DNA of 64,000 nt, from the NCBI GenBank assembly GCA_013177795.1, contig JABLXY010000003.1, positions 701,578-765,577 on the forward strand, read 5' to 3'. The translations under genes and the position numbers were made by a program. The notes under the pieces are model-generated. The model was not told the origin of the DNA and ran no database searches. It saw only the letters and a list, made by a program, of their open reading frames with translations. This DNA comes from Syntrophaceae bacterium (lineage in GTDB: Bacteria; Desulfobacterota; Syntrophia; Syntrophales; UBA2192). Positions 8,441 to 42,540 of this stretch are shown piece after piece (positions within the stretch are counted from its first letter, which is position 1; the number at the start of each line of letters is the position of its first letter).

Positions 8441-9976
8441 TCAGCCCGCGAGGGCGGGAAGGCTGCTCGAACAGGGCGACTGCAGGCAGCCGATGAACGC
8501 CTCGACCACCCTCGGGTCGAACTGCGTGCCGACGTATCGGCGCAGCTCCGCCACCGCCTCGTCGCGGCTCATGCTCGCGCGGTAGGGGCGGTTGGTCGTC
8601 ATGGCGTCGTAGGCGTCGGCCACGGCGATCATGCGCGACAGCAGCGGGATCTGCTCGCCCGCCAGGCCGTCGGGGTAGCCCGACCCGTCCCAGTTCTCGT
8701 GGTGGTGCCGGATGATCTTGCGCTCCTTCTCGAACAGGGCGATCGGGGTGAGGATGTCGTCGCCGATCGCGCAGTGGTTCTTGATGATGTCGTACTCCTC
8801 CCCCGTCAGCTCGTCGGGCTTGAGGAGGATGTGGTCCGGGATCGCGATCTTGCCGATGTCGTGGAGCATGGCGGCGATCTTGAGACACTCGATGTCGTCG
8901 GCCGTGCACGCCATGATCTCCGCCGTCCGGACCGAGAATTCCGTCACGCTCACGGAGTGGCGCTCGGTGTACTGGTCCCGCGCCTGGATGGAGGTCACCA
9001 GCGCCCGGAAGGTCTCGGCGATGTTCGTGTAGAGGGTCTCGTAGAGGACCTTGTTCTCGAGGTTCAGCGATGCCCGGCGCGCAAGGCTCAGGATGACGTG
9101 CAGGTCCTGGTCCGTGAAGCAGGCCCCGTTGCGGCCCTTCCAGAGGCCGAGGATCCCGAAGACGTTGCCGCGGATCGTCAGCGGGGCGCAGAGGATGGAC
9201 GCCGCGCCGTCGGCGCCGGAGACGTTGCACAGCACGCCGTCCCTCTTCTCGACGACCTCCCGCAGCAGATCCTTCGGCCACGGCACGGCGTGGCGCGGGG
9301 GGACGCTGTCGACGCTGCCGGTGAACTTGGGCAGGAACTCGCCGGTGTCCCGGTCGTAGAGCAGGATCAGGCAGTGCTCGCCGCCCGAGACCTTGAGGGC
9401 CAAATCGGCGATGACGCGGAAGACGTTGTCGTTGCTCACCCCGAGCCGCTCGATGAAGTCGTAGATGAACCCCTTGGCCGAGATCTGGCGGACCTTGTCG
9501 CGCAGCCGCTCCTGCTCGGCCTTGTGCAGGATCCCGTCGGCCGACAGCAGGGACTTTTCCCGCAGGTAGATGTTGACCTTGTAGAGCAGCTCGTCGATCC
9601 GGAAGGGCTTCGCGATGAAATCGACGGCCCCCGTCTTCATGGCCGACACGGAGAGGCCGATGGAGGGGTAGCCGGTGATGAGGATGACGGATATCGAGGG
9701 GTTGATCTCCCGGATCCGGCCCAGGAGGTCCATCCCGTTCATGCCGGGCATGTGGATGTCGCTGATGACCAGGTCGTAGAGGTTGGAGCGAAGGGCCTCC
9801 AGGGCCTCCTTTCCGTCGGCGGCCTCGGTGGCGATGTATTCACCCCCTTGCCGCAGGGCCTCGACGATGAGGCTGCGCACGGAAGGGTCGTCGTCGACGA
9901 CGAGGATCGTCCGCTTGACGGACGAGGGCACGGGCATGATCCTGAACTCGTTTCCGGCGGCCTGCATCCCGTTCAT
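8441..9976 (-). CDS. Response regulator with REC, GAF-like and HD-GYP (c-di-GMP phosphodiesterase-type) domains
   Basis: ILVVDDDPSVR...DLVISDIHMPGMNG receiver; C-terminal LHDIGKIAIP...HHENWDGSGYPDGL HD-GYP signature. Confidence 0.85.
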   Translation of the reverse strand: MNGMQAAGNEFRIMPVPSSVKRTILVVDDDPSVRSLIVEALRQGGEYIATEAADGKEALEALRSNLYDLVISDIHMPGMNGMDLLGRIREINPSISVILITGYPSIGLSVSAMKTGAVDFIAKPFRIDELLYKVNIYLREKSLLSADGILHKAEQERLRDKVRQISAKGFIYDFIERLGVSNDNVFRVIADLALKVSGGEHCLILLYDRDTGEFLPKFTGSVDSVPPRHAVPWPKDLLREVVEKRDGVLCNVSGADGAASILCAPLTIRGNVFGILGLWKGRNGACFTDQDLHVILSLARRASLNLENKVLYETLYTNIAETFRALVTSIQARDQYTERHSVSVTEFSVRTAEIMACTADDIECLKIAAMLHDIGKIAIPDHILLKPDELTGEEYDIIKNHCAIGDDILTPIALFEKERKIIRHHHENWDGSGYPDGLAGEQIPLLSRMIAVADAYDAMTTNRPYRASMSRDEAVAELRRYVGTQFDPRVVEAFIGCLQSPCSSSLPALAG

Positions 9977-10160
9977 CCTGGCGATCCCGTCCCTCGCGTC
10001 GATCCCGTCGCGTCAGCCGGGGGCAGTCGTGGGGCGGCGGCCTTCTCCAGTGGCGACGGCCGGTCACATGCGGTCTCCAACCAGGCGTACCGGGGTCATG
10101 TGATGAAGGGCGTTCAGCCCGCTCCGGGTCGGTCCCCCGCTCAGCGAATCGCGTCGGGTT

Positions 10161-10379
10161 CTATTTGGATTTATTGCCTTTCAGGAGGATGTCCATCAGG
10201 CTGTAGGAGATCCTGTCGTAGACCTCCGTTTTATGCTGCTCGGTGCCGAGCGATACCACGTCAGCGTACCGCGGGGTTGTCTTCGGACCCTCCCCGGACG
10301 CTGCGGGCTTCTCTGCGGCCTTGCTCTGCCGGCTGTAGGCCTTGAGGATGTTGTCGATCTGGTACGTCGATATGGTCAT
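10161..10379 (-). CDS. Small hypothetical protein (72 aa)
   Basis: The internal ATG at 10379 gives MTISTYQIDNILKAYSRQSK...DILLKGNKSK. The longer 160-aa ORF-track version runs through the divergent promoter region. The gene is co-directional with, and 184 nt upstream of, the HD-GYP gene. No family recognised. Confidence 0.4.
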   Translation of the reverse strand: MTISTYQIDNILKAYSRQSKAAEKPAASGEGPKTTPRYADVVSLGTEQHKTEVYDRISYSLMDILLKGNKSK

Positions 10380-10494
10380 CGCCGGGCTCACGGTTTTGTC
10401 ACAATGGAGATCGGTCCGGCGGGTCAAAACTTTAGGGCTTTGTGCCGCCCCGCGGTGCACGATCCCCCCGTCCCGGCACTCTCGATAATTCTGG

Positions 10495-10522
10495 TTGACT
10501 AATGTCAAAATTTTGTTAACAT
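10495..10522 (+). promoter_or_regulatory. Candidate sigma-70-type promoter TTGACT-N16-TAACAT embedded in the palindrome TTGAC-TAAT-GTCAA
   Basis: Read directly in the divergent spacer between the small minus-strand gene and the bEBP gene. The palindrome also presents TTGACA on the minus strand. Confidence 0.35.
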
Positions 10523-10684
10523 CCCGGGTTGCTTTAAGATCACGCGATACATACGATCCCTCCGCCAGGGGCTTCCCTGCCAGGGCCGGGGCACCGCCCG
10601 ACCCGCCGGAGGGGCTTTTGAAGGCGTCCGGATCGCCCGTCACCCGACAACACCCACCCCCGAGGAGCGGTAGTAGAGCCGGCC

Positions 10685-12091
10685 ATGGCAGACAGCAAGA
10701 TCAAGAAGGAAATGAAGAACATCCGGATCCTCATCGCCGAGGACAACGAGTTGAGCCGGGACAACCTCTCGGAATTGTTGAAAAGTTACGGATACGAGGT
10801 CAAGGGCGTCGGCGACGGCCGCCAGGCCATGGACGTCTTCATCGAGGACAAGTACGACCTCGTGATCACGGACCTCAAGATGCCCCACGTCGACGGCCTC
10901 CACTTGCTGAAGTTCGTCAAGGAGGTCAACCCCGAGAGCATCGTCATCATGATCACGGGCTACGGCACGGTCAACTCGGCCGTCGAGGCCATGAAGCTGG
11001 GCGCCTTCGACTACATCACCAAGCCCCTGAAGGACGACATCGTCAAGCTCACCATCGACCGTGCCCTGTCCTTCGCCAAGCTCAAGGAAGAGAACATCGC
11101 GCTGAAGGACCACCTGAAGAAGAAGTACGACTTCGGCAAGATCATCGGCTTCAGCGACAGCATGCGGAAGGTCTTCGACAACATCGAGAAGGTGGCCGCC
11201 TCGGACAGCACCGTCGTCATCTACGGGGAGAGCGGGACGGGAAAGGAACTCGTCGCCCGGGCCATTCACTTCAACAGCGACCGCCGGAGCTTTCCCCTCG
11301 TGCCGGTCAACTGCGGCGCCATTCCCGAGGAGCTCCTCGAGAGCGAGCTGTTCGGGCACGAGAAGGGGGCCTTCACGGGCGCCATCAAGAGCCGGGTGGG
11401 CCGCTTCGAGCTGGCCCAGGGCGGGACGATCTTCCTCGACGAGATCGGGGACATGAGCCCCGCACTGCAGGTCAAGGTCCTGCGCGTCATCCAGGAGAAG
11501 CAGTTCGAGCGCATCGGCGGGGTCAAGACGATCAACGCCGACGTGCGGATCATCTGCGCCACGAACCAGGACCTCGAGAAGGCCGTCCAGGAGAAGCGGT
11601 TCCGCGAGGACCTGTTCTACCGCATCAACGTCATCCCCATCTACCTGCCGCCCCTGCGGGACCGGAAGATGGACATCCCCGTCCTGGTCAACCACTTCCT
11701 CCAGAAGTTCAACAAGCTCAAGAAGAAGAACGTCAAGGGGCTCACCCCCGAGGCGACCAATTACATGATGCGCTACTCCTGGCCGGGAAACGTCCGCGAG
11801 CTGGAAAACCTCATCGAGATGCTCGTCGTCATGCGGGAGGACGGCATGATCAGGGTCGAGGACCTGCCGCCCAAGATCCTCAGCGTCGGGAAGGGCAAGA
11901 GCGAGGTGCTGAGCGTCGTCGACATCCCCGAGGACGGCATCGAGTACAACGGGGTGGTCGACCAGTTCGAAAAGGACCTCCTCCTCAAGGCCCTGGAGAA
12001 GACGGGCGGGGTGAAGAACCGCGCCGCCAAGCTGCTCAACCTGAACCGGACCACGTTCGTCGAAAAGCTCAAGCGCTTCAACATCAGCTAG
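10685..12091 (+). CDS. Sigma-54-dependent response regulator (REC + AAA+ bEBP + Fis-type HTH), candidate flagellar master regulator (FlrA/FleQ/FgrM-like role)
   Basis: DLVITDLKMPHVDG receiver Asp; GESGTGKE Walker A; GAFTGA sigma-54 contact loop; C-terminal NRAAKLLNLNRTTFVEKLKRF HTH. It lies at the head of the flagellar regulon. Confidence 0.88.
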   Translation: MADSKIKKEMKNIRILIAEDNELSRDNLSELLKSYGYEVKGVGDGRQAMDVFIEDKYDLVITDLKMPHVDGLHLLKFVKEVNPESIVIMITGYGTVNSAVEAMKLGAFDYITKPLKDDIVKLTIDRALSFAKLKEENIALKDHLKKKYDFGKIIGFSDSMRKVFDNIEKVAASDSTVVIYGESGTGKELVARAIHFNSDRRSFPLVPVNCGAIPEELLESELFGHEKGAFTGAIKSRVGRFELAQGGTIFLDEIGDMSPALQVKVLRVIQEKQFERIGGVKTINADVRIICATNQDLEKAVQEKRFREDLFYRINVIPIYLPPLRDRKMDIPVLVNHFLQKFNKLKKKNVKGLTPEATNYMMRYSWPGNVRELENLIEMLVVMREDGMIRVEDLPPKILSVGKGKSEVLSVVDIPEDGIEYNGVVDQFEKDLLLKALEKTGGVKNRAAKLLNLNRTTFVEKLKRFNIS

Positions 12092-12195
12092 CGGGCTTGT
12101 GAAAAACGCCCATCTGCGGCGTTCCTTCATCCCTCGTCGCTGCGACGCCCGTCCCGTCTTCTCAGTCTATTCCGTCTGTTCCGTCGAAAAGGGCG

Positions 12196-12223
12196 CCGGG
12201 GAGAATGCTCTCCCCGGTTTTTT
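12196..12223 (+). terminator. Rho-independent terminator
   Basis: CCGGGGAG-aatgct-CTCCCCGG is a perfect 8-bp stem followed by TTTTTT, about 100 nt after the bEBP stop. Confidence 0.85.
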
Positions 12224-12264
12224 CATGCTTTGCGCCTGCAGGCCCGAGGGTTTCGGCTTCGATC

Positions 12265-12278
12265 GTCAATATTTTGAC
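12265..12278. promoter_or_regulatory. Candidate enhancer (UAS) palindrome GTCAATATTTTGAC
   Basis: Perfect GTCAA-N4-TTGAC dyad 160 nt upstream of the sigma-54 promoter at 12425. It resembles the Pseudomonas FleQ box GTCaNTAAAtTGAC as I recall it (12/14). Confidence 0.45.
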
Positions 12279-12424
12279 AAGCCCCTCAAGTTTCCGTGGA
12301 TCGGGTCGACGGGCGCACGGGGCGCCATGCCCTGCTTCCGCTGCCGGCGGCCCCTGCACGCCGCCGCCCGGTGCCTGAACCCCTCCTGCCCCCGCCCCCA
12401 TCCCCCCCAGCCCCGTCTTTTCCA

Positions 12425-12440
12425 TGGCATAACCATTGCT
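12425..12440 (+). promoter_or_regulatory. Sigma-54 (-24/-12) promoter TGGCAT-aacca-TTGCT
   Basis: GG and GC are at canonical spacing, 62 nt upstream of ATG 12502. It overlaps the ORF-track start at 12436, which argues for the shorter CDS. Confidence 0.65.
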
Positions 12441-12501
12441 TTCTTCCGGTCAGGCGGTGGTGTGCCCGGCGCGGCCCGCACCGCGGAAAACGGGAGCGAC
12501 C

Positions 12502-14715
12502 ATGAAAAAACGCCTTTTTGCCTGCCTGGCTCTCCTCCTCTTACTGGCCCTCGACCCGCCTGCGGCCTCTGCCCGGAGAGGCGCGGAGGTCTTCAGCCTT
12601 CACGTGGGCTCTTACGCGAGCGCCGAAAAGGCCGCCGAGCAGGTCAGGCTCCTGCAGGGCAAGGGGTGCGAGGCCTTCGCCGATAAGCCCGACGGCAGGG
12701 ACGGGAAGGTGCGCGTCTACGTGGGCCGCTTTGCCGATCCGCAGGAGGCGGCCCGCGAGGGGTCAAGGCTCGAGCAGAAGAAGATCATCCGCTTCTTTGC
12801 CGTCCGGCCCGTCCGCGCAGCCGAGGCGCCGAAGAAAGCCCTTGCCGCGCGGGAGCCCGCCGCCCCGGCGGGTCCGAAAGCTCCCGACACCCCGGCCCTG
12901 AAGGACACGAAAATCCACCCCCAGGTGAAGATCGAAACGGCGGCCCCGGGAGCATCCCGGCCGGGAAAGAAACCCCCTCTCTTCGCCCCGAGGCTGGAGT
13001 CGGCTGCGGGCGACTCGGTGACGGCGGGACTGCCGGAACCGGAGTACTTCAAGTTCGAGCCCTTCGAGGCGGGCGCACGTCCCCGCGCGGAGAGCGGCCG
13101 GGCGGGTGCCGGCCTTGCGGAAGACGAGGCCCTCTACGCCGAAGCGGTGGAACTGTACCGAAAGGGCAAGTACAGCACGGCCATCGACACGTTCCGGTCC
13201 TATATCCGTCAGTTCGCGGGCGGGCCCCGGTCGAAGGCCTGTTTTTACTGGATTGCCGAGTGCCACAGCCAGATGAAGGACCCGGCGAAGGCCGACGAGG
13301 CCTTCGCAGAGGCCGTCAGGCGCTGGCCCGACTACCGGGACATCCCCCGGGAGACCCTCGTGAGCCTGGGGTTCCATCATTTCCGGCGGGGCGCCTTCGA
13401 CAGCGCCATCGAGGTCTTCTCGTACACGATCAATCTCTACCCCCAGGACCCCTTCCGCAAGGAGATGAGCTACCTGATCGCCCGCTCGCTCACCGAGATG
13501 CAGCAGTACGAATCGGCCCTCCGGGCCTACAGCGCGGTGATCGAGAAGTACCCCGACACCAAGGAAGCCAAGGAGAGCGCCGTCATCATGGCCAACATCG
13601 GGGTCAGGAGCCCCGGGCTGAAGCTCCCGGCCCTCATGGCGGGCGCGGAAAACTATCTGGACCCCGTTGCGGCCTACGACAGGGTGCTCGCGAAGGACCT
13701 CCCGAACCCGGAGCTGGCGGAGCGGATCCTCTTTCAGAAGGCCTATGCCCTGTACCAGCGGAAGCAGTACCGCGAGGCGTTCCAGGCCGGCTTTGAACAG
13801 CTCAGGCGCTTCCCGAACGGCCCGTGCCGGGACGCGGGGCTGCAGACCCTCAAGGGGAGCACGGAAAGGATGGTCGACGAGGACTACGGCAGGGGGGATT
13901 ACCTCCGCGTGGCCGATACCTTCCTGTCGGCCTACGAGGGCGCATGGGTGAAGTCCGTCGACTTCGCGACGGGCTACCGGATCGCCGACAGCCTGCGGCG
14001 GGTCGGCCTGTACCGCGAGGCGCGCCGCGTGGCCGACCACCTGCTGATGACCGAGCGGGACGGCGGGAACCGAAACGCCCTGCTGCTGCTCGCGGCCGAC
14101 GTGAGCCTCCGCGGGGGGCACGCCGACGAGGCGGAACGCATTTTGACGGAGCTCTCCCGGCAGGCGGCGGTGCTCGGCCGGGAGGACAGGCAGGCGATGC
14201 AGCGGCTCCAGGGGGACATCTACCTGAAGAAGGGGCTCTACCCGAAAGCGGCGGCCTCCTATGCCGACGTCCCGGCCGCGGACATGCCCGACGCGGCCGC
14301 CCTGCACCGCAGCTACGGCGTCGCCCTGCGGTTCAGCGATGACTGCCCGTCGGCGCTGCAGCAGTTCCAGATGGCCATCCGCCGAGCCGAGAAGGACAGG
14401 GCCGCGCACGGCAGGGCTCTCCAGGACGCGCTGGCCGGCTCCGGGGACTGCCACCTGCAGAGCCGCAATTACGCCGAAGCCGTCTCAGCCTACAGGCAGG
14501 CCGTCGAGGCCGCCCAGGGGGGGGCGCAGAACCCCTGGACCCTCTACCACCTCGGCAGGAGCTATGTGGGGATGAACAACCTGGCCGAGGCCAACCGGGT
14601 GTTCTCGGAGCTGAAGGTCCGGACCGGCGACGACTTCTGGAACAAGACGATCGACTACACCCTCTCCGAGGCCGCATGGACGGAGAAGTACCGAAAGTAC
14701 CTGCAGGCGAAGTAG
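12502..14715 (+). CDS. Exported SPOR-domain (peptidoglycan-binding) protein with a long TPR-repeat region
   Basis: MKKRLFACLALLLLLAL signal. FSLHVGSYASAEKAAEQVRLLQGKG...VRVYVGRFADPQEA fits the SPOR consensus. An Ala/Pro-rich linker follows, then multiple TPR-like helical repeats. GGGAG RBS before ATG 12502. Confidence 0.75.
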   Translation: MKKRLFACLALLLLLALDPPAASARRGAEVFSLHVGSYASAEKAAEQVRLLQGKGCEAFADKPDGRDGKVRVYVGRFADPQEAAREGSRLEQKKIIRFFAVRPVRAAEAPKKALAAREPAAPAGPKAPDTPALKDTKIHPQVKIETAAPGASRPGKKPPLFAPRLESAAGDSVTAGLPEPEYFKFEPFEAGARPRAESGRAGAGLAEDEALYAEAVELYRKGKYSTAIDTFRSYIRQFAGGPRSKACFYWIAECHSQMKDPAKADEAFAEAVRRWPDYRDIPRETLVSLGFHHFRRGAFDSAIEVFSYTINLYPQDPFRKEMSYLIARSLTEMQQYESALRAYSAVIEKYPDTKEAKESAVIMANIGVRSPGLKLPALMAGAENYLDPVAAYDRVLAKDLPNPELAERILFQKAYALYQRKQYREAFQAGFEQLRRFPNGPCRDAGLQTLKGSTERMVDEDYGRGDYLRVADTFLSAYEGAWVKSVDFATGYRIADSLRRVGLYREARRVADHLLMTERDGGNRNALLLLAADVSLRGGHADEAERILTELSRQAAVLGREDRQAMQRLQGDIYLKKGLYPKAAASYADVPAADMPDAAALHRSYGVALRFSDDCPSALQQFQMAIRRAEKDRAAHGRALQDALAGSGDCHLQSRNYAEAVSAYRQAVEAAQGGAQNPWTLYHLGRSYVGMNNLAEANRVFSELKVRTGDDFWNKTIDYTLSEAAWTEKYRKYLQAK

Positions 14716-14720
14716 GGCCC

Positions 14721-16022
14721 ATGCTGAACCGCAATGCGCACAGGCCGGACGGGACGGCGGAAGGCCCCGGCGGCGGGATCGACGTCCTGCAGAGGTCCTT
14801 CGAGAGCTTCAACGTGGCCACCCTGAAACTCCAGGAGGCCTTCCGGAGCCTCGAGACGAAGTTCGAAAGCCTCAACCGGGAGCTGGAGCAGAAGAACCGG
14901 CGCCTCGAAAGCCTGCTTGCCGAGAAGGAGGAGGTCCGCAGCGAGCTCGAGACCATCCTCGAGAGCCTGACCACGGGGGTCATCGTGACGGACCTGCAGG
15001 GCCGCATCACGAGGATGAACGGCTGTGCCGTCCGCCTTACCGGGACGGAACCCGGGGCCGCGGGGCCGCGGGTCGCCGAACTCCTTCTCGGGTCGCCGGA
15101 GACGGGCGGGACCGGGGCGCCCCCGGCCCGGGGCATTCCGGGCAAGCGCAAAATCCGCCTCGGGGAGAACATCCTCGAGGTTCTCACGGCCCCCGTTTCC
15201 GCCGGGGACGGCAGCAGGCTGGGGACGGTGCACATCCTGCTCGACGTGACCCGGGTCGAGAGGCTCGAGGAGATGGCCAAGCGCACGGAGAAGTTCGCCG
15301 CCATGGGGGAGATGGCGGCCAACATCGCCCACGAGGTCCGCAACCCCCTCGGGAGCATTGCCCTGTCGGCCTCGCTGCTCCTGAAGGGCCTTGCCGACGA
15401 GAAGAGCCGGGACCGGGCTTCCCGCATCCTCCATTCCGTGCGCAGCGTGGACAACAAGATCGCCAACCTGCTGCTCTTCACCCGCAAGCCGGAGCCGCAG
15501 TTTCGCAACCTGCGCCTGCACGACGTCCTGCGGGACATCCTCCGTTTCTCCGGCGAGATCCTCGAGAAGGAGGGCATCCGGCTCAACGTGCGCCTGGCCG
15601 ACGGCGAGCCCGTCGTCCGCGCCGACGGGGAACTGTTGCAGCAGGTGCTCCTCAACATGATTCTCAACGCCGTCCAGGCCATGCGCGGGGGCGGCGAGCT
15701 TTCCTTCGAGACCCGGCTGCACCGCGACCCGGCGCTCACGCCGGGCATGGAGCGGACGATCGAGCTGCGCATCGCCGACACGGGTCCGGGGATCCCCGAG
15801 GCGGACCGGAAGCGGATTTTCGACCCCTTCTTCAGCACGCGCGAGGGGGGCAGCGGCCTCGGGCTTGCCATCGTGCACAACATCATCGACCTGCACCGCG
15901 GCTCCGTGGATGTGGAGCGCGGGGAGCGGGGCGGGAGCGTGTTCACCATCCTCCTGCCGCTCGCGGAAACGAATGCAGAAGGCGGGGCGGCAATAGGGCA
16001 AGAAGATAGGAATCGGAGATGA
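14721..16022 (+). CDS. Cytoplasmic PAS sensor histidine kinase (FlrB/FleS-like)
   Basis: No TM segment. Coiled coil, a PAS-like region (TTGVIVTDLQGRITRMN), the H-box MAANIAHEVRNPLGSI, and HATPase motifs (NAVQAM, DTGPGIP, GGSGLGLAIV). Confidence 0.88.
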   Translation: MLNRNAHRPDGTAEGPGGGIDVLQRSFESFNVATLKLQEAFRSLETKFESLNRELEQKNRRLESLLAEKEEVRSELETILESLTTGVIVTDLQGRITRMNGCAVRLTGTEPGAAGPRVAELLLGSPETGGTGAPPARGIPGKRKIRLGENILEVLTAPVSAGDGSRLGTVHILLDVTRVERLEEMAKRTEKFAAMGEMAANIAHEVRNPLGSIALSASLLLKGLADEKSRDRASRILHSVRSVDNKIANLLLFTRKPEPQFRNLRLHDVLRDILRFSGEILEKEGIRLNVRLADGEPVVRADGELLQQVLLNMILNAVQAMRGGGELSFETRLHRDPALTPGMERTIELRIADTGPGIPEADRKRIFDPFFSTREGGSGLGLAIVHNIIDLHRGSVDVERGERGGSVFTILLPLAETNAEGGAAIGQEDRNRR

Positions 16023-17434
16023 CGGAAGCGGACACGAAGTGCAGGCCCATCCTCGTCGTCGACGACGACCCCTACATGCGGACGTCGCTCACGGACTGCC
16101 TCGTGAGCTGCGGCTGGCCTGTGGAGACGGCGGCCGACGGGGCCGACGCCCTGGCGAAGTTCCGCAAGGGGGCCTACGAGATGGTCATCACGGACGTCCG
16201 CATGCCCAAGATGGGCGGGCTGGAGCTGCTGAAGAACGTGAAGGGCCTGTCCCCCGACACTCCCGTCATCGTCATCACCGCCTACGGGACCGTGAACACG
16301 GCCGTGGAGGCCATGAAGCAGGGCGCGGCGGACTTCGTCATGAAGCCCTTTTCGCTCGACGATCTCGAAGTGGTGGTTCGGAATGTCCTCGAGCGGGGCC
16401 TGCAGCCGGACGTCGCCCGCGCAGATGTGCAGGAGACGGGAGGCGCGGCCCGCCCGGCGCAGCGGCCCATCGTGACGGAGGACGCCCGGATGGCCGAGCT
16501 CCTGGAGTTTCTCAAGAACATCGCGAAGAGCCGCTCGAGCGTCCTCATCCAGGGCGAGAGCGGGACGGGCAAGGAGCTGCTGGCCCGGTTCATCCACTAC
16601 CACAGCCCCCGGCGGCACCAGCCCTTCGTTGCCGTCAACTGCGCGGCCATCCCCCACACGCTCCTGGAGAGCGAGATGTTCGGCTACGAGAAGGGCGCCT
16701 TCACGGGCGCCGCCCAGCGCCGGATCGGCAAGTTCGAGCTGGCCGACCGCGGGACGCTTCTGCTCGACGAGGTGAGCGAGATGGACATGCCGCTGCAGGC
16801 GAAGCTCCTGCGTGTGATCCAGGAGTGCGAGATCGACCGGCTCGGCGGCAAGGACCCCATCCCCGTGGACGCGCGGATCATCGCGACGACCAACGCGGAC
16901 CTCAAGGCGTGCATCCGGGAGAAGAAGTTCAGGGAAGACCTCTACTACCGGCTCAACGTGATCCCCGTCCGCGTCCCGCCGCTGCGGGAGCGCAAGGGCG
17001 ACATCGCGGCCCTGGCGGGGCACTTCCTTGCGAAGTACGCAGCCGAGAACGGCAGGAAAAAGCCGGTCCTCACCCCCGAGACCCTGGCGGCGCTTGCCGC
17101 CTACCCCTGGCCGGGCAACGTGCGGGAGCTGGAAAACGTCATCGAGCGCGCCGTGCTCGTGTGCCCGGGCGATGCGCTCGAGCCGCATCACCTCGACCTC
17201 GACGGAGGCGGGATCGAGTCGGGGGCCGCAGGTCCCGAGCCGCCGTCCCCGGCGGGCGGGGCGACGACCCTGCGCGACATGGAGAAGCATCTCATCTTCA
17301 GCACCCTGAAGAGGGTCCGGGGCAACAAGACGAAGGCCTCCGAGATCCTCGGGATCAGCGTGCGGACGATGCGGAACAAGCTCAACGAGTACAAGCTCGA
17401 ACAGGGCTCGCCGGACGCCGGGGCCGATGCCTGA
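16019..17434 (+). CDS. Sigma-54-dependent response regulator (FlrC/FleR-like)
   Basis: ATGA overlap with the kinase gene. EMVITDVRMPKMGG receiver; GESGTGKE; GAFTGA; C-terminal HTH KASEILGISVRTMRNKL. Confidence 0.9.
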   Translation: MTEADTKCRPILVVDDDPYMRTSLTDCLVSCGWPVETAADGADALAKFRKGAYEMVITDVRMPKMGGLELLKNVKGLSPDTPVIVITAYGTVNTAVEAMKQGAADFVMKPFSLDDLEVVVRNVLERGLQPDVARADVQETGGAARPAQRPIVTEDARMAELLEFLKNIAKSRSSVLIQGESGTGKELLARFIHYHSPRRHQPFVAVNCAAIPHTLLESEMFGYEKGAFTGAAQRRIGKFELADRGTLLLDEVSEMDMPLQAKLLRVIQECEIDRLGGKDPIPVDARIIATTNADLKACIREKKFREDLYYRLNVIPVRVPPLRERKGDIAALAGHFLAKYAAENGRKKPVLTPETLAALAAYPWPGNVRELENVIERAVLVCPGDALEPHHLDLDGGGIESGAAGPEPPSPAGGATTLRDMEKHLIFSTLKRVRGNKTKASEILGISVRTMRNKLNEYKLEQGSPDAGADA

Positions 17435-17494
17435 CGGCTTCCCGCCCGCTGTCCCAAAATGGCCTATCTGCCTGTTTCTCCGAACACTTTTCTT

Positions 17495-17510
17495 TGGCAC
17501 ATGCCTTGCA
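17495..17510 (+). promoter_or_regulatory. Sigma-54 promoter TGGCAC-atgcc-TTGCA
   Basis: Perfect consensus match 40 nt upstream of the flgB ATG at 17550. Confidence 0.8.
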
Positions 17511-17549
17511 AAGTTTTCCCACGGATTCTCTGAACGGGGAAAAATCTGC

Positions 17550-17921
17550 ATGGACATCCTCTTCGGCAAAACGATCAACATGCTCTCGGACATCGTGGGG
17601 GCCCGGTCGCAGCGGCACCAGGTCCTGGCCTCGAACGTGTCCAACATCGACACGCCGGGCTACGAGCCCAAGGATGTGGACTTCGAGAACCTGATCGCCT
17701 CGATGCAGCAGAAGGGCGTCCGCCTGGCCCGCACGCACGGGAAACATTTGCCTGCCCAGACGGCGGGGGGTAGCCTCTCCGTGGTCCGGACGGGGGAACA
17801 GGTGAGCCTGGACCGCGAGATGGTCGCGATTGCCGAGAACCACCTCATGCACAACGCCGCCGTCGAGATGCTGGCGCGCAAGTTCAGGAAACTCCAGATC
17901 GTCCTGAGGGAGGGCAAGTAA
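17550..17921 (+). CDS. flgB: Flagellar basal-body rod protein FlgB
   Basis: SNVSNIDTPGYEPKDVDF rod-protein N motif. The start is placed downstream of the sigma-54 promoter. Confidence 0.9.
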   Translation: MDILFGKTINMLSDIVGARSQRHQVLASNVSNIDTPGYEPKDVDFENLIASMQQKGVRLARTHGKHLPAQTAGGSLSVVRTGEQVSLDREMVAIAENHLMHNAAVEMLARKFRKLQIVLREGK

Positions 17922-18346
17922 TGGATTTCATCACGTCCTTTGACATCTGCGCGTCGGGGCTGACGGCCCAGCGCAAGAAGATGGACGTCATCGTGAGCAA
18001 CCTCGCCAACGCGAGCACGATCCAGACCCCCGAGGGGGGCCCCTACAAGAGAAAAGTCGCCGTGCTGGCCGCGGAGCCCGTGCGGGGCAAGTTCGGCGCG
18101 GCCCTCCAGGATGCGCTCTCCCAGGTGAAGGTGACGGAGATCGTCGAGGACGGGGAGGGGCTCAAGAAGGTCCACGACCCCGCCCACCCCAACGCCGACG
18201 AGCAGGGGTTCGTCACCTACCCGAACGTGAACGTGGTCACGGAGATGGCCGACATGATCACGGCCAACCGGGCCTACGAGGCCTGCGTGACCGCGCTGGA
18301 CGCCTCGAAGAACATGGTCCTCAAGGCCCTCGACATCGGCAAGTAA
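17921..18346 (+). CDS. flgC: Flagellar basal-body rod protein FlgC
   Basis: SGLTAQRKKMDVIVSNLANAST...YPNVNVVTEMADMITANRAYEA. TAATG overlap with flgB. Confidence 0.95.
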   Translation: MDFITSFDICASGLTAQRKKMDVIVSNLANASTIQTPEGGPYKRKVAVLAAEPVRGKFGAALQDALSQVKVTEIVEDGEGLKKVHDPAHPNADEQGFVTYPNVNVVTEMADMITANRAYEACVTALDASKNMVLKALDIGK

Positions 18347-18360
18347 CGAATCCGGGAAGG

Positions 18361-18384
18361 TCCGGGGCGCAAACCGGCCCCGGA
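18361..18384 (+). other. GC-rich intercistronic hairpin TCCGGGGC-gcaaaccg-GCCCCGGA
   Basis: Perfect 8-bp stem between flgC and fliE with no U-tract. It may be an mRNA stability or processing element. Confidence 0.4.
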
Positions 18385-18403
18385 CGGTGAAGGAGCACGA
18401 CCC

Positions 18404-18709
18404 ATGAACAAGATCACGACGCGTCACGACGTCCAGGCGCCCCTGGCGCAGGCCCCGCGGCCTGCCGGGAGCGCAGCGGGCGGGCCGCAGGGCTCGTTCG
18501 GGGAGATGCTGAAGCAGGCGGTCAGCGAGATCAACCGGCTGCAGAACAGCGCCGACAAGGCGATCACGAACGTCCAGCTCGGCCAGTCGGGCAGCATCCA
18601 CGAGGCCATGATCGCCCTCGAGAAGGCCGATCTGTCCTTCCGGGCCATGATGCAGGTCCGGAACAAGATCCTGGAAGCCTACCAGGAAGTGATGCGGATG
18701 CAGGTGTAA
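18404..18709 (+). CDS. fliE: Flagellar hook-basal body complex protein FliE
   Basis: 101 aa. SFGEMLKQAVSEINRLQ...IHEAMIALEKADLSFRAMMQVRNKILEAYQEVMRMQV. Confidence 0.93.
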   Translation: MNKITTRHDVQAPLAQAPRPAGSAAGGPQGSFGEMLKQAVSEINRLQNSADKAITNVQLGQSGSIHEAMIALEKADLSFRAMMQVRNKILEAYQEVMRMQV

Positions 18710-18822
18710 CGTTCAGGGTTCCGCCCTCTGTCATCTGCGGCTCCTGCTCGACCTCGACCTGGATTGCGCGCTCCGATGACGGGTACCGAAATTCTTCTGA
18801 CGGATAGAGGGATCAACCGCCC

Positions 18823-20403
18823 ATGGCTCAGCTCGTCTCGCAGATGTGGAAGGGGTTCCAGTCCCTTCCGGTCCCCCGGAAACTCACCATCCTCGCGGCG
18901 GCGGCCGCCACGCTCGTCAGCATCGCGCTGGCCGTCGTCTTCATCAACCAGCCGGACTACAAGGTCCTCTTCACGAACCTCTCCGCCGAGGACGCCGGCC
19001 AGATCACGTCGAGGCTCCAGGAGAAGAAGATTCCCTACCAGCTCTCACCCGGCGGCGACACGATCTCGGTGCCCGCAGAGCAGGTGTCGCAGCTCCGGCT
19101 GGAGCTGGCCGCCTCGGGCCTGCCGAAGGGCGGCGGCGTCGGCTTCGAGATCTTCGACACGAAGAACCTGGGCGTCACCGAGTTCGTCCAGCAGCTCAAC
19201 CTCCAGCGCGCCCTCCAGGGTGAGCTGACCCGCACGATCAACAGCCTCGACGAGATCCAGCAGAGCCGGGTGCACCTGGCCATCCCGAAGAAGTCCCTCT
19301 TCGCCGAGGACCAGAAGAAGCCCACGGCGTCTGTCATCGTGAAGCTCAAGAGCGGGCGCAGCCTGAGCGAGCAGCAGATCCAGGGCATCGCCCACCTCGT
19401 CTCGAGCTCCATCGAGGGGATGAGCCCCCGGGACGTCATGATCGTGGACTCGAGCGGAAAGGTTCTCTCGAAGGTGACCGAGGGGGGCGGGGTGGCCCAG
19501 CTGTCCAACTCCCAGATCGAGTACAAGAAGAACGTCGAGAAGGACCTCACGAGCCGCATCACCTCCATGCTGGAGAAGGTCGTCGGCGAGGGGAAGGCCG
19601 TCGTCCGCATCTCCGCCGACCTGGACTTCCGGGTCATGGAGAAGACGGAGGAGAAGTACGACTCCGAGGAGCCCGCCATCCGCAGCGTGCAGCGCTCGCA
19701 GGAGAAGTCGGGCAGCACGTCCGGCTCGATGGGCGAGAGCTCCGTCGCGCTGACGGCCCGGCAGGCGGCGGCGCCCGCTGCGCGGCCGGCCGGGACGAAC
19801 CGCGAGAAGTCCGACGAGACGATCAACTACGAGATCAGCCGCACGGTCCACAAGACCGTCATGCCCGTGGGGGACGTCAAGAAGCTCTCCATCGCCGTGC
19901 TCGTCGACGGCACGTACGCGAAGAACGACAAGGGGGTCGAGGAGTACCAGCCGCGCCCCGAGAAGGAACTGGCGGCGCTGGAGGACCTCGTGAAGAAGTC
20001 CGCCGGGTTCGATGCGAAGCGGGGCGACCAGGTCGTCGTGTCCAACGTCCCGTTCAAGAAGGTGGACCTGTCCTCCGATATGCCCGAGAAGTCCTGGCTC
20101 GACAGGCTGGCGCCCTTCCTGCCGCTGGTCCGCTACCTCGTGATCCTGGCCGTGGTGGTCCTGGCGGCGCTCTTCGTCGTCAAGCCCCTCGTGCGCATGC
20201 TCGCCGAGCGGGGCCGGCAGGTGGAGGTGTCGGTCCGTGAAGTGCCGGCCGCCGCGGGCGAAATCAAGGGGGGAGACGGCGTGACGCTCTCGCTGGGCGC
20301 CCCGCAGGCGTCCCGCGAACTGACGGAGGCCGACATCGTGCGGCACATGGCCTCGGCGGACGCCAAGCGCTTCGCCGAGCTGCTGCGGAATTGGATAAAG
20401 TGA
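18823..20403 (+). CDS. fliF: Flagellar MS-ring protein FliF
   Basis: 526 aa. N-terminal TM segment; YKVLFTNLSAEDAGQITSRLQEKKIPYQL; LQGELTRTINSLD; C-terminal TM segment. Confidence 0.95.
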   Translation: MAQLVSQMWKGFQSLPVPRKLTILAAAAATLVSIALAVVFINQPDYKVLFTNLSAEDAGQITSRLQEKKIPYQLSPGGDTISVPAEQVSQLRLELAASGLPKGGGVGFEIFDTKNLGVTEFVQQLNLQRALQGELTRTINSLDEIQQSRVHLAIPKKSLFAEDQKKPTASVIVKLKSGRSLSEQQIQGIAHLVSSSIEGMSPRDVMIVDSSGKVLSKVTEGGGVAQLSNSQIEYKKNVEKDLTSRITSMLEKVVGEGKAVVRISADLDFRVMEKTEEKYDSEEPAIRSVQRSQEKSGSTSGSMGESSVALTARQAAAPAARPAGTNREKSDETINYEISRTVHKTVMPVGDVKKLSIAVLVDGTYAKNDKGVEEYQPRPEKELAALEDLVKKSAGFDAKRGDQVVVSNVPFKKVDLSSDMPEKSWLDRLAPFLPLVRYLVILAVVVLAALFVVKPLVRMLAERGRQVEVSVREVPAAAGEIKGGDGVTLSLGAPQASRELTEADIVRHMASADAKRFAELLRNWIK

Positions 20404-20484
20404 CAGGCTTCAGGCACCAGGCACCAGGCGTCAGGCCTGTTCGGAATTCTTCCCTCGAGCCTCATGCCCAATGCCTGATGCCCA
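20404..20484. repeat. Heptamer array inverted element: CAGGCTT CAGGCAC CAGGCAC CAGGCGT CAGGCCT ... GAGCCTC ATGCCCA ATGCCTG ATGCCCA
   Basis: Read directly. The five tandem 7-mers begin 1 nt after the fliF stop. The right arm ends 10 nt before the fliG ATG at 20495. Confidence 0.8.
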
Positions 20485-20494
20485 GGGTTTTTCT

Positions 20495-21493
20495 ATGACC
20501 AACGAAGAAAAGGCAGCCATCCTTCTGCTCTCCCTCGACGAGGAGCTCGCGGCGGCGGTGATGAAGAACCTCCGGGCCTCCGAGGTCCGCCGCATCAGCA
20601 AGTACATGAGCCGGATCACGAGCATCTCGGCGAGCGACGTGCAGAACGTCGCCAGGGAATTCTGCGACCTCGCGAAGGAAAAAGGCGGGATCGTCTCGGT
20701 CAAGGAGGACGTGGCGAAGAACATCGTCCTCAAGGCCCTGGGCCCCGAGCAGGCCGGGAGCATCCTCACCGCCCTGGAGGACGAGAAGGGCAAGATCAGC
20801 GAAAACCCCATCTTCGAGAAGCTGCGGGACATCGACCCCAAGCTGCTCAAGGAGTTCACGAAGATGGAGCACCCGCAGACGACGGCGCTCATCCTTGCGC
20901 ACCTGCGCCCCGAGCAGGCCGCGGAGATCATGGAATCCCTCTCCCCGGAGATGCAGATCGAGATCGTCCGGCGGATGGCGAATCTCAAGAGCGTGCCCAC
21001 GGACCTGATCGAGGACGTGGCCGAGACGCTCGAGAGCGAGCTGATCTCCGGGGCCGCCAACGAGAAGGAGATCGGCGGCGTGCGGCTCATGGCGGAGATC
21101 CTCAACCGGATGAACCGCACGAGCGAAAGCGCGATCATTTCCTCGCTCGACGGCACGGACCCGGAGCTGGCCGCGGAGATCCGCGGGCTGATGTTCACCT
21201 TCGACGACATCCTGAAGCTCGACGACCGCAGCATGCAGGAGCTGCTGCGCGAGGTCTCGAGCGAGGACCTCGCCCGGGCCCTCAAGGTCGTCGTCGCGGA
21301 GGGCCGCGAGAAGGTCTTCAGGAACATGTCCAAGCGCGGCGCCGAGATGCTGAAGGAAGACATCGAGATGATGCCGCCCGTGCGTCTCTCCGAGGTGGAG
21401 AAGAGCCAGCGGGCCATCCTGGACATCTGCAAGCGGCTCGAGGCCGAGGGCCGCATCCAGCTGCTGCGCGAGGAGGGCGATGCGTTCGTCTAA
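20495..21493 (+). CDS. fliG: Flagellar motor switch protein FliG
   Basis: MTNEEKAAILLLSLDEELAA...; EHPQTTALILAHL; MFTFDDI; typical FliG. The ORF-track start at 20471 lies inside the repeat arm. Confidence 0.95.
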   Translation: MTNEEKAAILLLSLDEELAAAVMKNLRASEVRRISKYMSRITSISASDVQNVAREFCDLAKEKGGIVSVKEDVAKNIVLKALGPEQAGSILTALEDEKGKISENPIFEKLRDIDPKLLKEFTKMEHPQTTALILAHLRPEQAAEIMESLSPEMQIEIVRRMANLKSVPTDLIEDVAETLESELISGAANEKEIGGVRLMAEILNRMNRTSESAIISSLDGTDPELAAEIRGLMFTFDDILKLDDRSMQELLREVSSEDLARALKVVVAEGREKVFRNMSKRGAEMLKEDIEMMPPVRLSEVEKSQRAILDICKRLEAEGRIQLLREEGDAFV

Positions 21494-22163
21494 CCGGGTC
21501 ATCAAGTCCCAGAACGTCAAGATCGTCGACGCCCCCCGGACGGAAAAGCCCCGCTTCGTGCCGGCCGACTTCGGCTGCGAGAACCTCTCCCAGGGCCCGG
21601 TGCCGCGGCGCTCGCGGATCGAGGAAATCCTCGTCGAGTCGGAGAGGAAGATCGAGGCCGCCGTGAAGCATGCCTACGAGAGGGGGCATGCCGAGGGGTT
21701 CCGCAAGGGATGCGAAACGCGGGAAAAGGAACTGGCCGCCACGGCCGAGGCGCTCAAGAAGCTGCTGCTCGAGGTCGAGAACATCCGCCGCAGCATCCTG
21801 GAGCGCGGGGAGGCGAAGGTGCTCAAGCTCGTCATCGCCGTGGCCCGGAAGGTCATCCGGCGGGAGGTGGCGATGGACCGCGACGTGATCCTCGGCGTCC
21901 TGCGCGAGGCCGTCAAGAACGTCCTCGACCGCGACCGCATCAAGATCCGGCTCAACCCGCGGGACCACGAGCGGGTCTCGAAGCTGACCCCGGGCCTCAT
22001 TGCGGGCTTCGAGGGGATCCGGTCGATCACCCTGGAGGCGGACCCGGGCATCAGCGCCGGCGGCGCCGTGATCGAGACGGCCTTCGGCGAAATCGACGCC
22101 ACCCTGGAGCAGCAGCTCGAGGAGATCCTGAAGGCGTTTTTGCAAAACGGGCAAAAGGCATAA
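21480..22163 (+). CDS. fliH: Flagellar assembly protein FliH
   Basis: 227 aa. GAGGAGGG RBS; 14-nt overlap with fliG; central AYERGHAEGFRKG; position between fliG and fliI. Confidence 0.85.
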   Translation: MRSSNRVIKSQNVKIVDAPRTEKPRFVPADFGCENLSQGPVPRRSRIEEILVESERKIEAAVKHAYERGHAEGFRKGCETREKELAATAEALKKLLLEVENIRRSILERGEAKVLKLVIAVARKVIRREVAMDRDVILGVLREAVKNVLDRDRIKIRLNPRDHERVSKLTPGLIAGFEGIRSITLEADPGISAGGAVIETAFGEIDATLEQQLEEILKAFLQNGQKA

Positions 22164-22233
22164 GGCAAAGGGCGAAAGGCGACGCGGAAAAAATTCTTTT
22201 CAAGCCCTTACGCCATCGGTCCCTGCGCCTGAG
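22149..22233. repeat. Heptamer array inverted element: GGGCAAAA GGCATAA GGCAAAG GGCGAAA GGCGACG ... AAGCCCTTAC GCCATCG GTCCCTGC GCCTGAG
   Basis: Read directly. The left arm overlaps the last codons of fliH. The right arm ends about 8 nt before the fliI start. Confidence 0.7.
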
Positions 22234-22241
22234 GTATTTTG

Positions 22242-23558: not shown

Positions 23559-23598
23559 GAGGTGAACAAACCTCTGCGGTGGTGCGGCTCGTAATGTC

Positions 23599-23706
23599 CG
23601 GGAAGATACGAAGTTGGGAAGTTGAGAAGTTTGGAATGCGCTACGGCACGACATGTCCTTTTCGCTTCTCCAAGCTTCAGAGCTTCAAAACTTCTCAGCT
23701 TCGCAG
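23599..23706. repeat. Octamer array inverted element: GGGAAGAT ACGAAGTT GGGAAGTT GAGAAGTT TGGAATGC ... TCTCCAAGCT TCAGAGCT TCAAAACT TCTCAGCT TCGCAGGC
   Basis: Read directly. It is a sequence relative of the 4245-4348 element (GGGAAGTTGAGAA shared). Confidence 0.75.
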
Positions 23707-23769
23707 GCTGCGGCCTTTCATCGAGACATCTCTCCGACATACAGGAGGGATGAACGACAGGAGTACAGG

Positions 23770-24234
23770 GTGTTCCGGTTCCGGTTCGAACAGGTCCTGA
23801 ATGTGCGGAAGCTCGCGGAGGAGCAGATCTTGCAGGAGTTCTCCGAGCAGGTCCGGGACCTCGAGCGCCAGAAGGAGCGGCTCCGGTCGATCCGCGGCGA
23901 GAAGGCCTCCGTGCTGGCCGGACTGATGCGCCGCCGGGAAGGGACGCTCAACGCGGGCGAGATCGGCCTGGCCTTCGGGTACCTCCGGACCCTCCGTCAG
24001 CGGGAGGTGGCCCAGGCGGTGCTGGTCGCCGACCGCGAGAAAGCCCTCGAGATCAAGCGGGATGAGCTCACGGAGGCCATGAAGCGGCGAAAGATCATGG
24101 AGATCCTCAAGCAGAAGAAGTTCGATCAGTACTGGAAAGAGTGGACCCGCAAGGAGTCCGTGGAATTGAACGAGCAGGGAATCATCCGCTTTCTGAAGAG
24201 GTCCGGCGATGAGAAGGCTGATCATCATCTGTGA
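23770..24234 (+). CDS. fliJ: Flagellar export chaperone FliJ
   Basis: (V)FRFRFEQVLNVRKLAEEQ... coiled-coil with KRRKIMEILKQKKFDQYWKEW. The GTG 23770 start, with AGGAG 6 nt upstream, is inferred. The ORF-track start at 23653 lies in the repeat element. Confidence 0.75.
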   Translation: MFRFRFEQVLNVRKLAEEQILQEFSEQVRDLERQKERLRSIRGEKASVLAGLMRRREGTLNAGEIGLAFGYLRTLRQREVAQAVLVADREKALEIKRDELTEAMKRRKIMEILKQKKFDQYWKEWTRKESVELNEQGIIRFLKRSGDEKADHHL

Positions 24235-26264: not shown

Positions 26265-26277
26265 GGCAAATATTGCC
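26265..26277. promoter_or_regulatory. Candidate enhancer palindrome GGCAA-ATA-TTGCC
   Basis: Perfect dyad 182 nt upstream of the fliK sigma-54 promoter. Confidence 0.3.
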
Positions 26278-26446: not shown

Positions 26447-26462
26447 TGGCACACGGGTTGCT
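26447..26462 (+). promoter_or_regulatory. Sigma-54 promoter TGGCAC-acggg-TTGCT
   Basis: Perfect -24/-12 match about 30-35 nt upstream of the fliK start codons. It lies inside the ORF-track N-terminal extension. Confidence 0.8.
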
Positions 26463-30203: not shown

Positions 30204-30217
30204 GTCAATTTGTTGAC
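30204..30217. promoter_or_regulatory. Candidate enhancer (UAS) palindrome GTCAATTTGTTGAC
   Basis: Second GTCAA-N4-TTGAC dyad in the window, 146 nt upstream of the fliL sigma-54 promoter. Confidence 0.45.
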
Positions 30218-42503: not shown

Positions 42504-42540
42504 GCCGGGAAGAGCCGGGGAGAAAGCGGAGAAGGGGGAT

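Follow-up and report, generated by a model that had tools for sequence, protein, structure and literature searches.

A SPOR/TPR protein heads the sigma-54 flagellar two-component operon of Syntrophales and may be a PflA-like accessory protein of the polar motor

The DNA analysed here, referred to as the window, is a stretch of 64,000 nt from a Syntrophaceae bacterium (assembly GCA_013177795.1, contig JABLXY010000003.1, positions 701,578 to 765,577) with a G+C content of 65%. Genes were called from third-position G+C and annotated with Pfam and NCBIfam. A complete polar-flagellum cluster takes up about 10.7-57 kb of the window; because it includes the genes for FlhF and FlhG (38462-40751) and also encodes FliA, we regard the flagellum as polar. 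At its 5′ end, the gene for a stand-alone bacterial enhancer-binding protein (bEBP1) and a terminator are followed by a GTCAA-N4-TTGAC dyad, a sigma-54 promoter and the genes for a protein with a SPOR domain and tetratricopeptide repeats (the SPOR/TPR protein), a PAS kinase and a second enhancer-binding protein (bEBP2), then by another sigma-54 promoter and flgB (Table 1). An earlier model-made reading of the same letters (the sequence-only reading) had described this layout. We found every element of it, from bEBP1, a REC-AAA-HTH regulator, and its terminator onwards, at, or within a few bases of, where that reading had placed it, and the distance from the bEBP2 stop to the flgB promoter, given there as about 60 nt, was measured as 61 nt.

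The frames of the operon are tightly packed. In the window, 40 nt are common to the end of the SPOR/TPR gene and the start of the kinase open reading frame (ORF), and 4 nt to the end of the kinase ORF and the start of that of bEBP2. In three related loci from Smithella/Smithellaceae (L024-L026), the TPR and kinase genes overlap by up to 23 nt or leave a gap of up to 18 nt. Scanning the + strand from 10000 to 18500 gave only one terminator-like site, that 3′ of bEBP1, and hairpins equivalent to it were seen in an alignment of relatives. The same + strand scan found no terminator between 12226 and flgC and none between bEBP2 and flgB; read-through from the SPOR/TPR promoter at 12425 into flgB-fliF would therefore be possible. 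As its ORF overlaps that of the kinase, the SPOR/TPR gene has no separate transcript. The overlapping frames and the lack of internal terminators show SPOR/TPR, kinase and bEBP2 as one predicted operon, as the sequence-only reading had held.

Table 1. Positions of the regulatory elements and genes considered in this work, in window coordinates
Feature	Position	Strand	Details
bEBP1, stand-alone REC-AAA+(sigma-54)-HTH regulator	10685-12091	+	Pfam REC, Sigma54_activat, AAA_lid, HTH_8
Intrinsic terminator of bEBP1	12195-12226	+	stem 12195-12218, 10 bp, 7 GC pairs, then TTTTTT
Upstream activator dyad GTCAATATTTTGAC	12265-12278	.	perfect; 160 nt 5′ of the -24 element
sigma-54 promoter of the SPOR/TPR operon, TGGCATAACCATTGCT (TGGCAT-N5-TTGCT)	12425-12440	+	perfect pattern match
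Conserved 5′ untranslated leader (GGTCAGGCGGTGGTG...) of the SPOR/TPR operon	12441-12501	+	alignment
SPOR-linker-TPR protein, 737 aa	12502-14715	+	Pfam, hydropathy, AlphaFold2 model, homologues
Coiled-coil-PAS-HisKA-HATPase kinase, FlrB/FleS type	14676-16022	+	Pfam, hydropathy, orthologues
bEBP2, REC-AAA+-HTH, FlrC/FleR/FlbD-like	16019-17434	+	Pfam, NCBIfam, FlrC AAA+ match
flgB sigma-54 promoter TGGCACATGCCTTGCA	17495-17510	+	consensus; 61 nt 3′ of the bEBP2 stop; drives flgB-flgC-fliE-fliF-fliG-fliH-fliI-fliJ
flgB, flgC, fliE, fliF, fliG, fliH, fliI, fliJ	17547-24234	+	Pfam, ORFs
FlgY/FlbB-like candidate, 201 aa	24209-24814	+	N-terminal transmembrane helix, coiled coil, sub-threshold MgtE_N-like match (E 1.7e-4)
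Different dyad GGCAAATATTGCC (GGCAA-N3-TTGCC)	26265-26277	.	182 nt 5′ of the fliK sigma-54 promoter 26447-26462
Second GTCAA-N4-TTGAC dyad	30204-30217	.	146 nt 5′ of the sigma-54-like site 30350-30365, before fliL-fliM

The true ATG of the SPOR/TPR gene lies slightly 3′ of the start of its longest ORF. Hydropathy revealed a single hydrophobic stretch in the protein, at residues 5-25 (MKKRLFACLALLLLLALDPPAASA) and followed by ASA|RR, and none elsewhere; residues 1-24 or so were taken as a signal peptide from hydropathy, not from a dedicated predictor. One N-terminal hydrophobic stretch is likewise present in nearly all full-length representatives of the family. This predicted export signal shows the product as a protein exported to the periplasm, with no further membrane segment. 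The SPOR domain matches Pfam PF05036 (E 7.6e-7, 29.8 bits for a cut-off of 21), and many TPR families of Pfam match from residue ~210 to the end. An AlphaFold2 model built from a 30-sequence alignment (mean pLDDT, the predicted local distance difference test score, 76.7) resolves three parts: a SPOR fold at residues ~30-105 (beta-alpha-beta-beta-alpha-beta, pLDDT ~90), a disordered, Pro/Ala-rich linker of ~95 residues (~108-204, pLDDT <35) and a continuous, all-helical TPR superhelix of ~530 residues (~207-735), with 30 helices in paired repeats (pLDDT 80-94).

SPOR domains bind septal or denuded glycan. In the window protein, the first-strand motif of the domain is LHVGSY, where His replaces the usual glycan-binding Gln. 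Alignments showed the same Gln to His replacement in most family members, L019 retaining the Gln. Outside the repeats, a linker motif at residues ~171-189 (GDSVTxGLPEPExFKFxPF) is conserved in the close clade, and a non-TPR loop at residues ~356-392 (E-S-x-x-I-M-A-N-I-G-V...P-G...P...G...Y-x-D-P..T-Y) is invariant in the whole family. Both are candidate docking sites. In PflA, a flagellar protein to which we return below, binding to PflB goes through the linker. The Smithellaceae orthologues L025, L026 and L027 carry an extra conserved segment of ~45 residues (~130-180) between SPOR and the TPR body, VVVGNKTSKRYHLPGMPFYxKVK...EAxxxGY, for which precomputed Pfam results gave only a faint ArfC match.

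Pfam assigns PAS, HisKA and HATPase domains to the kinase, which has no hydrophobic segment; both bEBPs are likewise free of any. Having a signal-type segment only in the one case and none in the other, the SPOR/TPR protein and the kinase are placed on opposite sides of the inner membrane. Thus the exported SPOR + TPR protein and the cytoplasmic PAS kinase of the sequence-only reading were both recovered. Among PDB entries the kinase matches a 354-aa histidine kinase (E 4.7e-26), and other generic kinases match too. Translation shows GAFTGA and a receiver Asp in both regulators (in DLVITD for bEBP1, in EMVITD for bEBP2). The bEBP1 sequence is 90-99% identical to those of close relatives and 73-77% to those of distant ones. 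bEBP2 matches the AAA+ domain of FlrC (E 7e-80) and scores 421 bits against 318 for bEBP1 with the NCBIfam FlbD model, the FlgR and FlbD scores being below the cut-offs of these models; the FlrBC/FleSR-type assignment of kinase and bEBP2 rests on genomic context. bEBP1 is a candidate top-tier flagellar activator, comparable to FgrM or FlrA. Its receiver is canonical and phosphorylatable, unlike those of FlrA and FleQ, and in this it is closer to Geobacter FgrM (PMC4579418).

We then examined the cis elements. The sigma-54 promoter pattern has 6 matches in the window for 1.55 expected; besides those before the SPOR/TPR gene and flgB, matches lie before fliK-flgD-flgE (26447) and flgF/G (46111). 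Of 52 distinct upstream regions from related loci, 51 have a sigma-54 promoter before the TPR gene. The exact GTCA-N6-TGAC dyad is found in 36 of these 52, 103-215 nt 5′ of the promoter and including the low-G+C Smithellaceae; several of the remaining lineages carry a one-mismatch dyad, GTCAA-N4-TTGGC or GTCAA-N4-TTGTC, together with a downstream TTGAC half-site. Similarly, 37 of 39 related loci have a sigma-54 site 5′ of flgB. This pattern across related loci is far beyond chance, and the dyad and promoter that the sequence-only reading had set before the operon are conserved elements. When close relatives are aligned, the dyad stands out as invariant, along with the neighbouring AAGTTTTC...TCGAC, from a spacer whose remainder cannot be aligned; the conserved core of the dyad is (T)GTCA-N6-TGAC(A). 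Also, conservation is much higher in the ~60-nt leader than elsewhere between bEBP1 and the SPOR/TPR gene; an alignment fold gave no convincing covarying RNA structure in it (-7.2 kcal/mol, 2 compensatory pairs).

The GTCAA-N4-TTGAC dyad recurs in the window before fliL-fliM, and a different one, GGCAA-N3-TTGCC, precedes the fliK promoter. The latter is similar to GGCA-N4-TGCC, the motif of the flagellar regulator DVU1063 in Desulfovibrio and of FlbD in Caulobacter (PMC3333781). A one-mismatch copy of it (GGCAATATTTTCC) lies 5′ of the flgF/G promoter at 46111. The two dyad classes suggest two bEBP regulons, of which the GTCAA-N4-TTGAC class is probably bound by phosphorylatable bEBP1, a pairing that we infer. 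Two enhancer classes for two bEBPs would fit a two-tier sigma-54 cascade, and the two-tier flagellar layout proposed earlier is supported. Sigma-54-like sites were also noted before flhA, within the 3′ end of flhB (36184-36199), and where the flgF/G gene starts (46111-46126). They parallel Geobacter, where RpoN promoters are reported for the flhA and flgG operons.

Related loci were gathered by a genome scan (21 loci), through kinase orthologues of about 50% identity, which led to four loci of Smithella/Smithellaceae (L024-L027), and by a metagenome scan (54 loci). All 79 belong to Syntrophales or to unnamed metagenome contigs; the 21 of the genome scan are in metagenome-assembled genomes named Syntrophales, Syntrophaceae or 'delta proteobacterium'. 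Each of these 21 shows the same order, RR-HD-GYP (-), small ORF (-), bEBP1, TPR, kinase, bEBP2, flgB, flgC, fliE, fliF and fliG (RR, response regulator), with the kinase missing from L018. In L024-L027, a SPOR + TPR protein of 838-916 aa, a PAS kinase, a bEBP and the genes from flgB on are preceded by pilZ-motA-motB and che genes, not by bEBP1. Their TPR bodies are 27-30% identical to that of the window protein over ~520 residues (E 1e-59 to 1e-75) and are true homologues. Among the 54 metagenome loci, the TPR gene is followed by the kinase in 43 and by bEBP2 in 3, 7 contigs end just after it and one is odd, a short contig with a bEBP2 match on the opposite strand. For all 79 the figures are 65, 4, 9 and 1, respectively.

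In each of the 69 loci with readable downstream DNA, the TPR gene stands immediately 5′ of (kinase)-bEBP2-flgB-flgC-fliE-fliF-fliG. The triad of the sequence-only reading is thus kept in relatives, the TPR gene preceding the two-component genes throughout (kinase-bEBP2 in 65, bEBP2 directly in 4); the gene is neither absent from orthologous operons nor confined to an independent transcript. None of the 79 loci has a TPR gene away from flagellar genes. Its upstream neighbours vary (RR-HD-GYP, orf160 and bEBP1, or pilZ, or motB-motA-pilZ). Two further variations bear on function. In four loci (L018, L064, L066 and L067) the TPR gene is followed by bEBP2 and flgB with no kinase in the operon. A whole lineage (L016, L017, L020 and L053-L061) lacks SPOR, the 721-725-aa proteins of L016, L017 and L020 consisting of a signal peptide and TPRs only. 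Although never missing, the SPOR/TPR gene evolves faster than any of its neighbours: identity of the window protein to that of L005 is 66%, against 92% for bEBP1, 75% for the kinase, 81% for bEBP2 and 86% for FliF, and to that of L016 33%, against 74, 51, 63 and 58%, respectively. Fast evolution is typical for peripheral scaffold proteins.

The size of the family was obtained from an exhaustive profile search, which returned 185 clusters (50% identity) with E <1e-30. It superseded word-indexed protein and profile searches, whose ~36 members reflected a limit of the tools. Most top members are 800-970 aa long, with a signal-type N-terminus and SPOR, and SPOR is present in about 50 of the first 70 representatives. 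In more distant relatives, with a match over the entire TPR body (E ~1e-60), the N-terminus is AMIN-like and not SPOR, by signals that are weak and sub-threshold. A cluster look-up of distant representatives gave almost exclusively metagenome proteins without a name, Geobacter and Desulfovibrio not being among the names returned; the distribution of the family beyond Syntrophales rests on literature tables. Two proteins of ~1000 aa, from L022 (P0040, Salinibacter altiplanensis) and L023 (P0037), match the profile at E 1e-47 to 1e-52. They were rejected as members, since their context is HU, a SPOR protein and ExbB/ExbD and not flagella: the order is TPR, an uncharacterised 560-590-aa protein, HU, a SPOR or HU-CCDC81 protein, ExbB and ExbD. 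This makes another, non-flagellar, pairing of TPR and SPOR with a motor of the MotA/ExbB type.

Such loci are among the grounds for regarding the SPOR/TPR protein as a housekeeping envelope protein, CpoB/YbgF-like and associated with Tol-Pal or ExbBD, which merely shares the flagellar transcript. Its best natural bacterial matches among PDB sequences are CpoB/YbgF and BamD, and JGI names homologues 'TolA-binding protein'. The true family, however, was found only beside flagellar genes, in 79 of 79 loci, under a flagellar-type sigma-54 promoter and with a dyad common to the fliL operon. We give this explanation hardly any credit.

The prevalence of SPOR in the family would suit a different role, that of a polar site-selection or wall-remodelling factor. 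The protein would bind glycan that is denuded at new poles or by lytic enzymes, mark or prepare the site of rod passage through the wall, and offer a TPR platform that recruits hydrolases or FlhF-dependent assembly. The presence of FlhF and FlhG in a polar-flagellum cluster is in keeping with this, as is the dyad common to the TPR operon and to the fliL-fliM (switch/export) operon, which fits early expression. On the other hand, the SPOR-less lineage keeps the gene in place, most members have His for the key Gln of SPOR, the gene is linked to no hydrolase gene and it is the TPR body, not SPOR, that is conserved. Weighing these points, we find such a factor unlikely.

The sequence-only reading proposed that the SPOR/TPR protein could be the missing input of the kinase: it would read the state of peptidoglycan at pole or septum, signal to the PAS kinase and so gate bEBP2-dependent genes. 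An operon linkage to kinase and bEBP2 that is conserved and translationally coupled across an order speaks for it, as do a kinase with no sensor domain outside the cytoplasm and the targeting of septal or denuded glycan by SPOR domains. This part of the reading, with an input that acts by contact between TPRs and kinase, was not supported. The two proteins are in different compartments and the operon encodes no membrane-spanning partner. One lineage has no SPOR, which means that the function conserved in the family cannot be to sense septal or denuded glycan, and where the kinase is gone from the operon the TPR gene is kept. Geobacter has a TPR gene before flgB with no two-component system (PMC2725144), and the architecture of the protein is itself PflA-like, as described below. 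Moreover, kinases of the FlrB, FleS and FlgS type need export apparatus, MS ring and rotor for their activity (PMC7064773), many such kinases are cytoplasmic by design (PMC7064773, PMC3760246), and FlrB is polar, FlhF-dependent and modulated by the MS ring (PMC12607845). As the model kinases respond to these structures, whose formation governs them, the input is not 'missing' as had been assumed. A direct sensor role is in our opinion very improbable.

An indirect version would be a periplasmic assembly checkpoint, in which docking of the SPOR/TPR protein on the polar wall and the nascent basal body lets the MS ring and export apparatus activate the kinase. The state of envelope and pole would then be coupled indirectly to class III flagellar transcription, which would explain the order-long translational coupling of the SPOR/TPR gene to the two-component system. 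We rate this, too, as quite improbable.

The explanation we favour, with some reserve, is that the SPOR/TPR protein is a PflA-like periplasmic accessory or scaffold protein of the polar flagellar motor. After secretion it would be tethered to the cell wall, where its TPR solenoid may provide stators or an E-ring with a structural platform around the basal body. As first cistron of a sigma-54 operon with the two-component system, it would be expressed as an early flagellar gene, and sharing that operon would mean co-expression of early flagellar genes, not signalling from the SPOR/TPR protein to the kinase. As wall anchor, SPOR would have been swapped in for this clade and lost in one lineage.

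Besides the flagellar linkage, the shared transcript, the export signal, the three-part architecture, the AMIN-like N-termini of distant relatives and the fast evolution, this explanation draws on two comparisons. PflA has 16 TPR motifs, an unstructured linker and an N-terminal beta-sandwich (PMC12222027), the N-terminal domain being a peptidoglycan-binding AMIN-like module, and makes up the spokes in the periplasmic scaffold by which the stators are held (PMC11870540). Like PflA of Campylobacter jejuni and Helicobacter pylori, the window protein is predicted to be secreted to the periplasm and belongs to the class of ~740-790-aa proteins with a wall-binding N-terminus, a linker and a TPR superhelix. 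Its gene also lies with flagellar genes, and a FlgY/FlbB-like candidate is in the same cluster. The candidate is encoded 3′ of fliJ, a position that fits the FlgY gene order of PMC11870540, and from its sequence features is presumed to be the E-ring partner (FlgY/FlbB) of a PflA-like spoke. The same 2025 preprint argues that ~52% of flagellated species have a potential PflA homologue among the TPR proteins whose genes lie within or close to flagellar clusters; flagellar-cluster TPR proteins of this kind include FlcA in spirochaetes and CC_2058 in Caulobacter. In the table of the preprint, almost all flagellated Thermodesulfobacteriota have both a potential PflA homologue and one of FlgY, the former being, for example, of 669 aa in Syntrophus aciditrophicus and 696 aa in G. 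sulfurreducens, the length of GSU0406 (PMC11870540).

GSU0406 offers the second comparison. This 'TPR domain protein' of G. sulfurreducens (437169-439259, 696 aa) is encoded immediately 5′ of flgB GSU0407 (439493), under a predicted RpoN promoter of its own and with no two-component gene between (PMC2725144). It shares with the window protein a size of ~700 aa, the TPRs, a predicted RpoN promoter, a place at the flgB end of a sigma-54 flagellar cluster and the phylum; it differs in that flgB is adjacent, with neither kinase nor bEBP in between.

Several points weigh against a PflA-like scaffold. The N-terminal domain of the window protein is SPOR, of RNP-like fold, and not an AMIN-like beta-sandwich, although the two are analogous in function. 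A Foldseek search of the PDB with the model returned, at rank 6, the 773-residue chain 9hmf_K of the C. jejuni periplasmic scaffold model 9HMF (E 5.5e-9, TM 0.25), in itself a point in favour of a scaffold; the other hits were generic TPR solenoids (APC/C, OGT, Ctr9). Only generic TPR proteins came from a profile search against PDB sequences (designed TPRs, OGT, CpoB/YbgF, BamD, LapB). Since APC/C, OGT and CpoB/YbgF do no worse than the model that contains PflA, homology to PflA is not demonstrated, and fold and sequence alone assign the protein to no specific family. The orthology of GSU0406 and of the Syntrophus protein, both compared by their descriptions, is unproven. A tight, ancient linkage to a two-component system, with overlapping frames, is neither required nor explained by a purely structural role, and a place at the motor is inferred. 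PflA also differs in that the window gene is the first cistron of a two-component operon, and a PflB-like membrane-anchored TPR partner was not found in the window cluster. The product of a second TPR gene (24963-26150, -) was considered as PflA or PflB and set aside, having neither signal peptide nor transmembrane segment. That protein has a beta-rich C-terminal domain of ~150 residues, and the first 116 codons of its long ORF have a third-position G+C of non-coding type.

As a class, TPR proteins of flagellar clusters were flagged before, and the sigma-54 layout resembles that of Geobacter. New are a SPOR-TPR family that is large and has no name, its strict occupation of the first position in a flagellar two-component operon across Syntrophales, and the conserved enhancer dyads. 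If the protein is a PflA-type spoke, motor scaffolds of Thermodesulfobacteriota share their plan with those of Campylobacterota, the wall-anchoring module is interchangeable (SPOR here, AMIN elsewhere, none in one lineage) and the recent claim of ancient, widespread E-ring and spoke structures gains support. The pair of conserved enhancer motifs provides a handle on the two-tier sigma-54 hierarchy in bacteria that are difficult to cultivate. The finding opens no new kind of biology.

Some features of the surroundings deserve mention. The DNA 5′ of the flagellar cluster holds haem-synthesis genes, polA, a gene for a secreted protein of unassigned function and a divergent RR-GAF-HD-GYP gene. The latter (8441-9976, -), of cyclic di-GMP phosphodiesterase type, is a recurrent neighbour in related loci; a PilZ gene or pilZ-motA-motB replaces it in other lineages (L024-L027, L062-L081). 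These REC-GAF-HD-GYP or PilZ neighbours suggest that control by cyclic di-GMP is tied to the locus. A small ORF (10161-10643, -) with no Pfam or NCBIfam match but with 70-100 conserved C-terminal residues is found in nearly all related loci, distant lineages included, either divergent just 5′ of bEBP1 or directly 5′ of the TPR gene. This flagellum-linked small protein was considered as FlgM and rejected, since it matches no family and the real FlgM is encoded at 50911-51237. Farther into the cluster, there are two FliL paralogues (30256-30999 and 41483-42124), a small protein resembling the C-terminal domain of FlhB (45550-45867) and a run of five genes (42165-45504; 112, 277, 106, 162 and 379 aa), four without family match and the 162-aa one matching DUF6115 only. 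Finally, a 1694-aa protein with WbsX and GT2 glycosyltransferase domains and TPR arrays is encoded next to the late flagellar genes (57799-62883, -) and is possibly a flagellin glycosylation enzyme.

Other known systems resemble parts of the locus. CpoB/YbgF has periplasmic repeats of TPR_6 type and is the best natural bacterial match among PDB sequences, with E ~1e-11 over ~100 residues. It is a protein of ~260 aa with a coiled-coil trimerisation domain and belongs to the tol-pal operon, whereas the window protein is three times longer, carries SPOR and is linked to flagellar genes. The T-ring of Vibrio combines a peptidoglycan-binding module (OmpA-like, in MotY) with TPR-like repeats (Sel1, in MotX), but on two separate small proteins of different folds and with no evident homology. 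Closest on the regulatory side are FlrBC of Vibrio, FleSR of Pseudomonas and FlgSR of Campylobacter and Helicobacter: they share with the window a cytoplasmic coiled-coil/PAS/HisKA/HATPase kinase paired with an NtrC-type REC-AAA+-HTH regulator, sigma-54 promoters before rod and hook genes, and the presence of FlhF and FlhG. Their operons, however, hold the two regulatory genes only, whereas that of the window opens with a TPR protein predicted to be exported.

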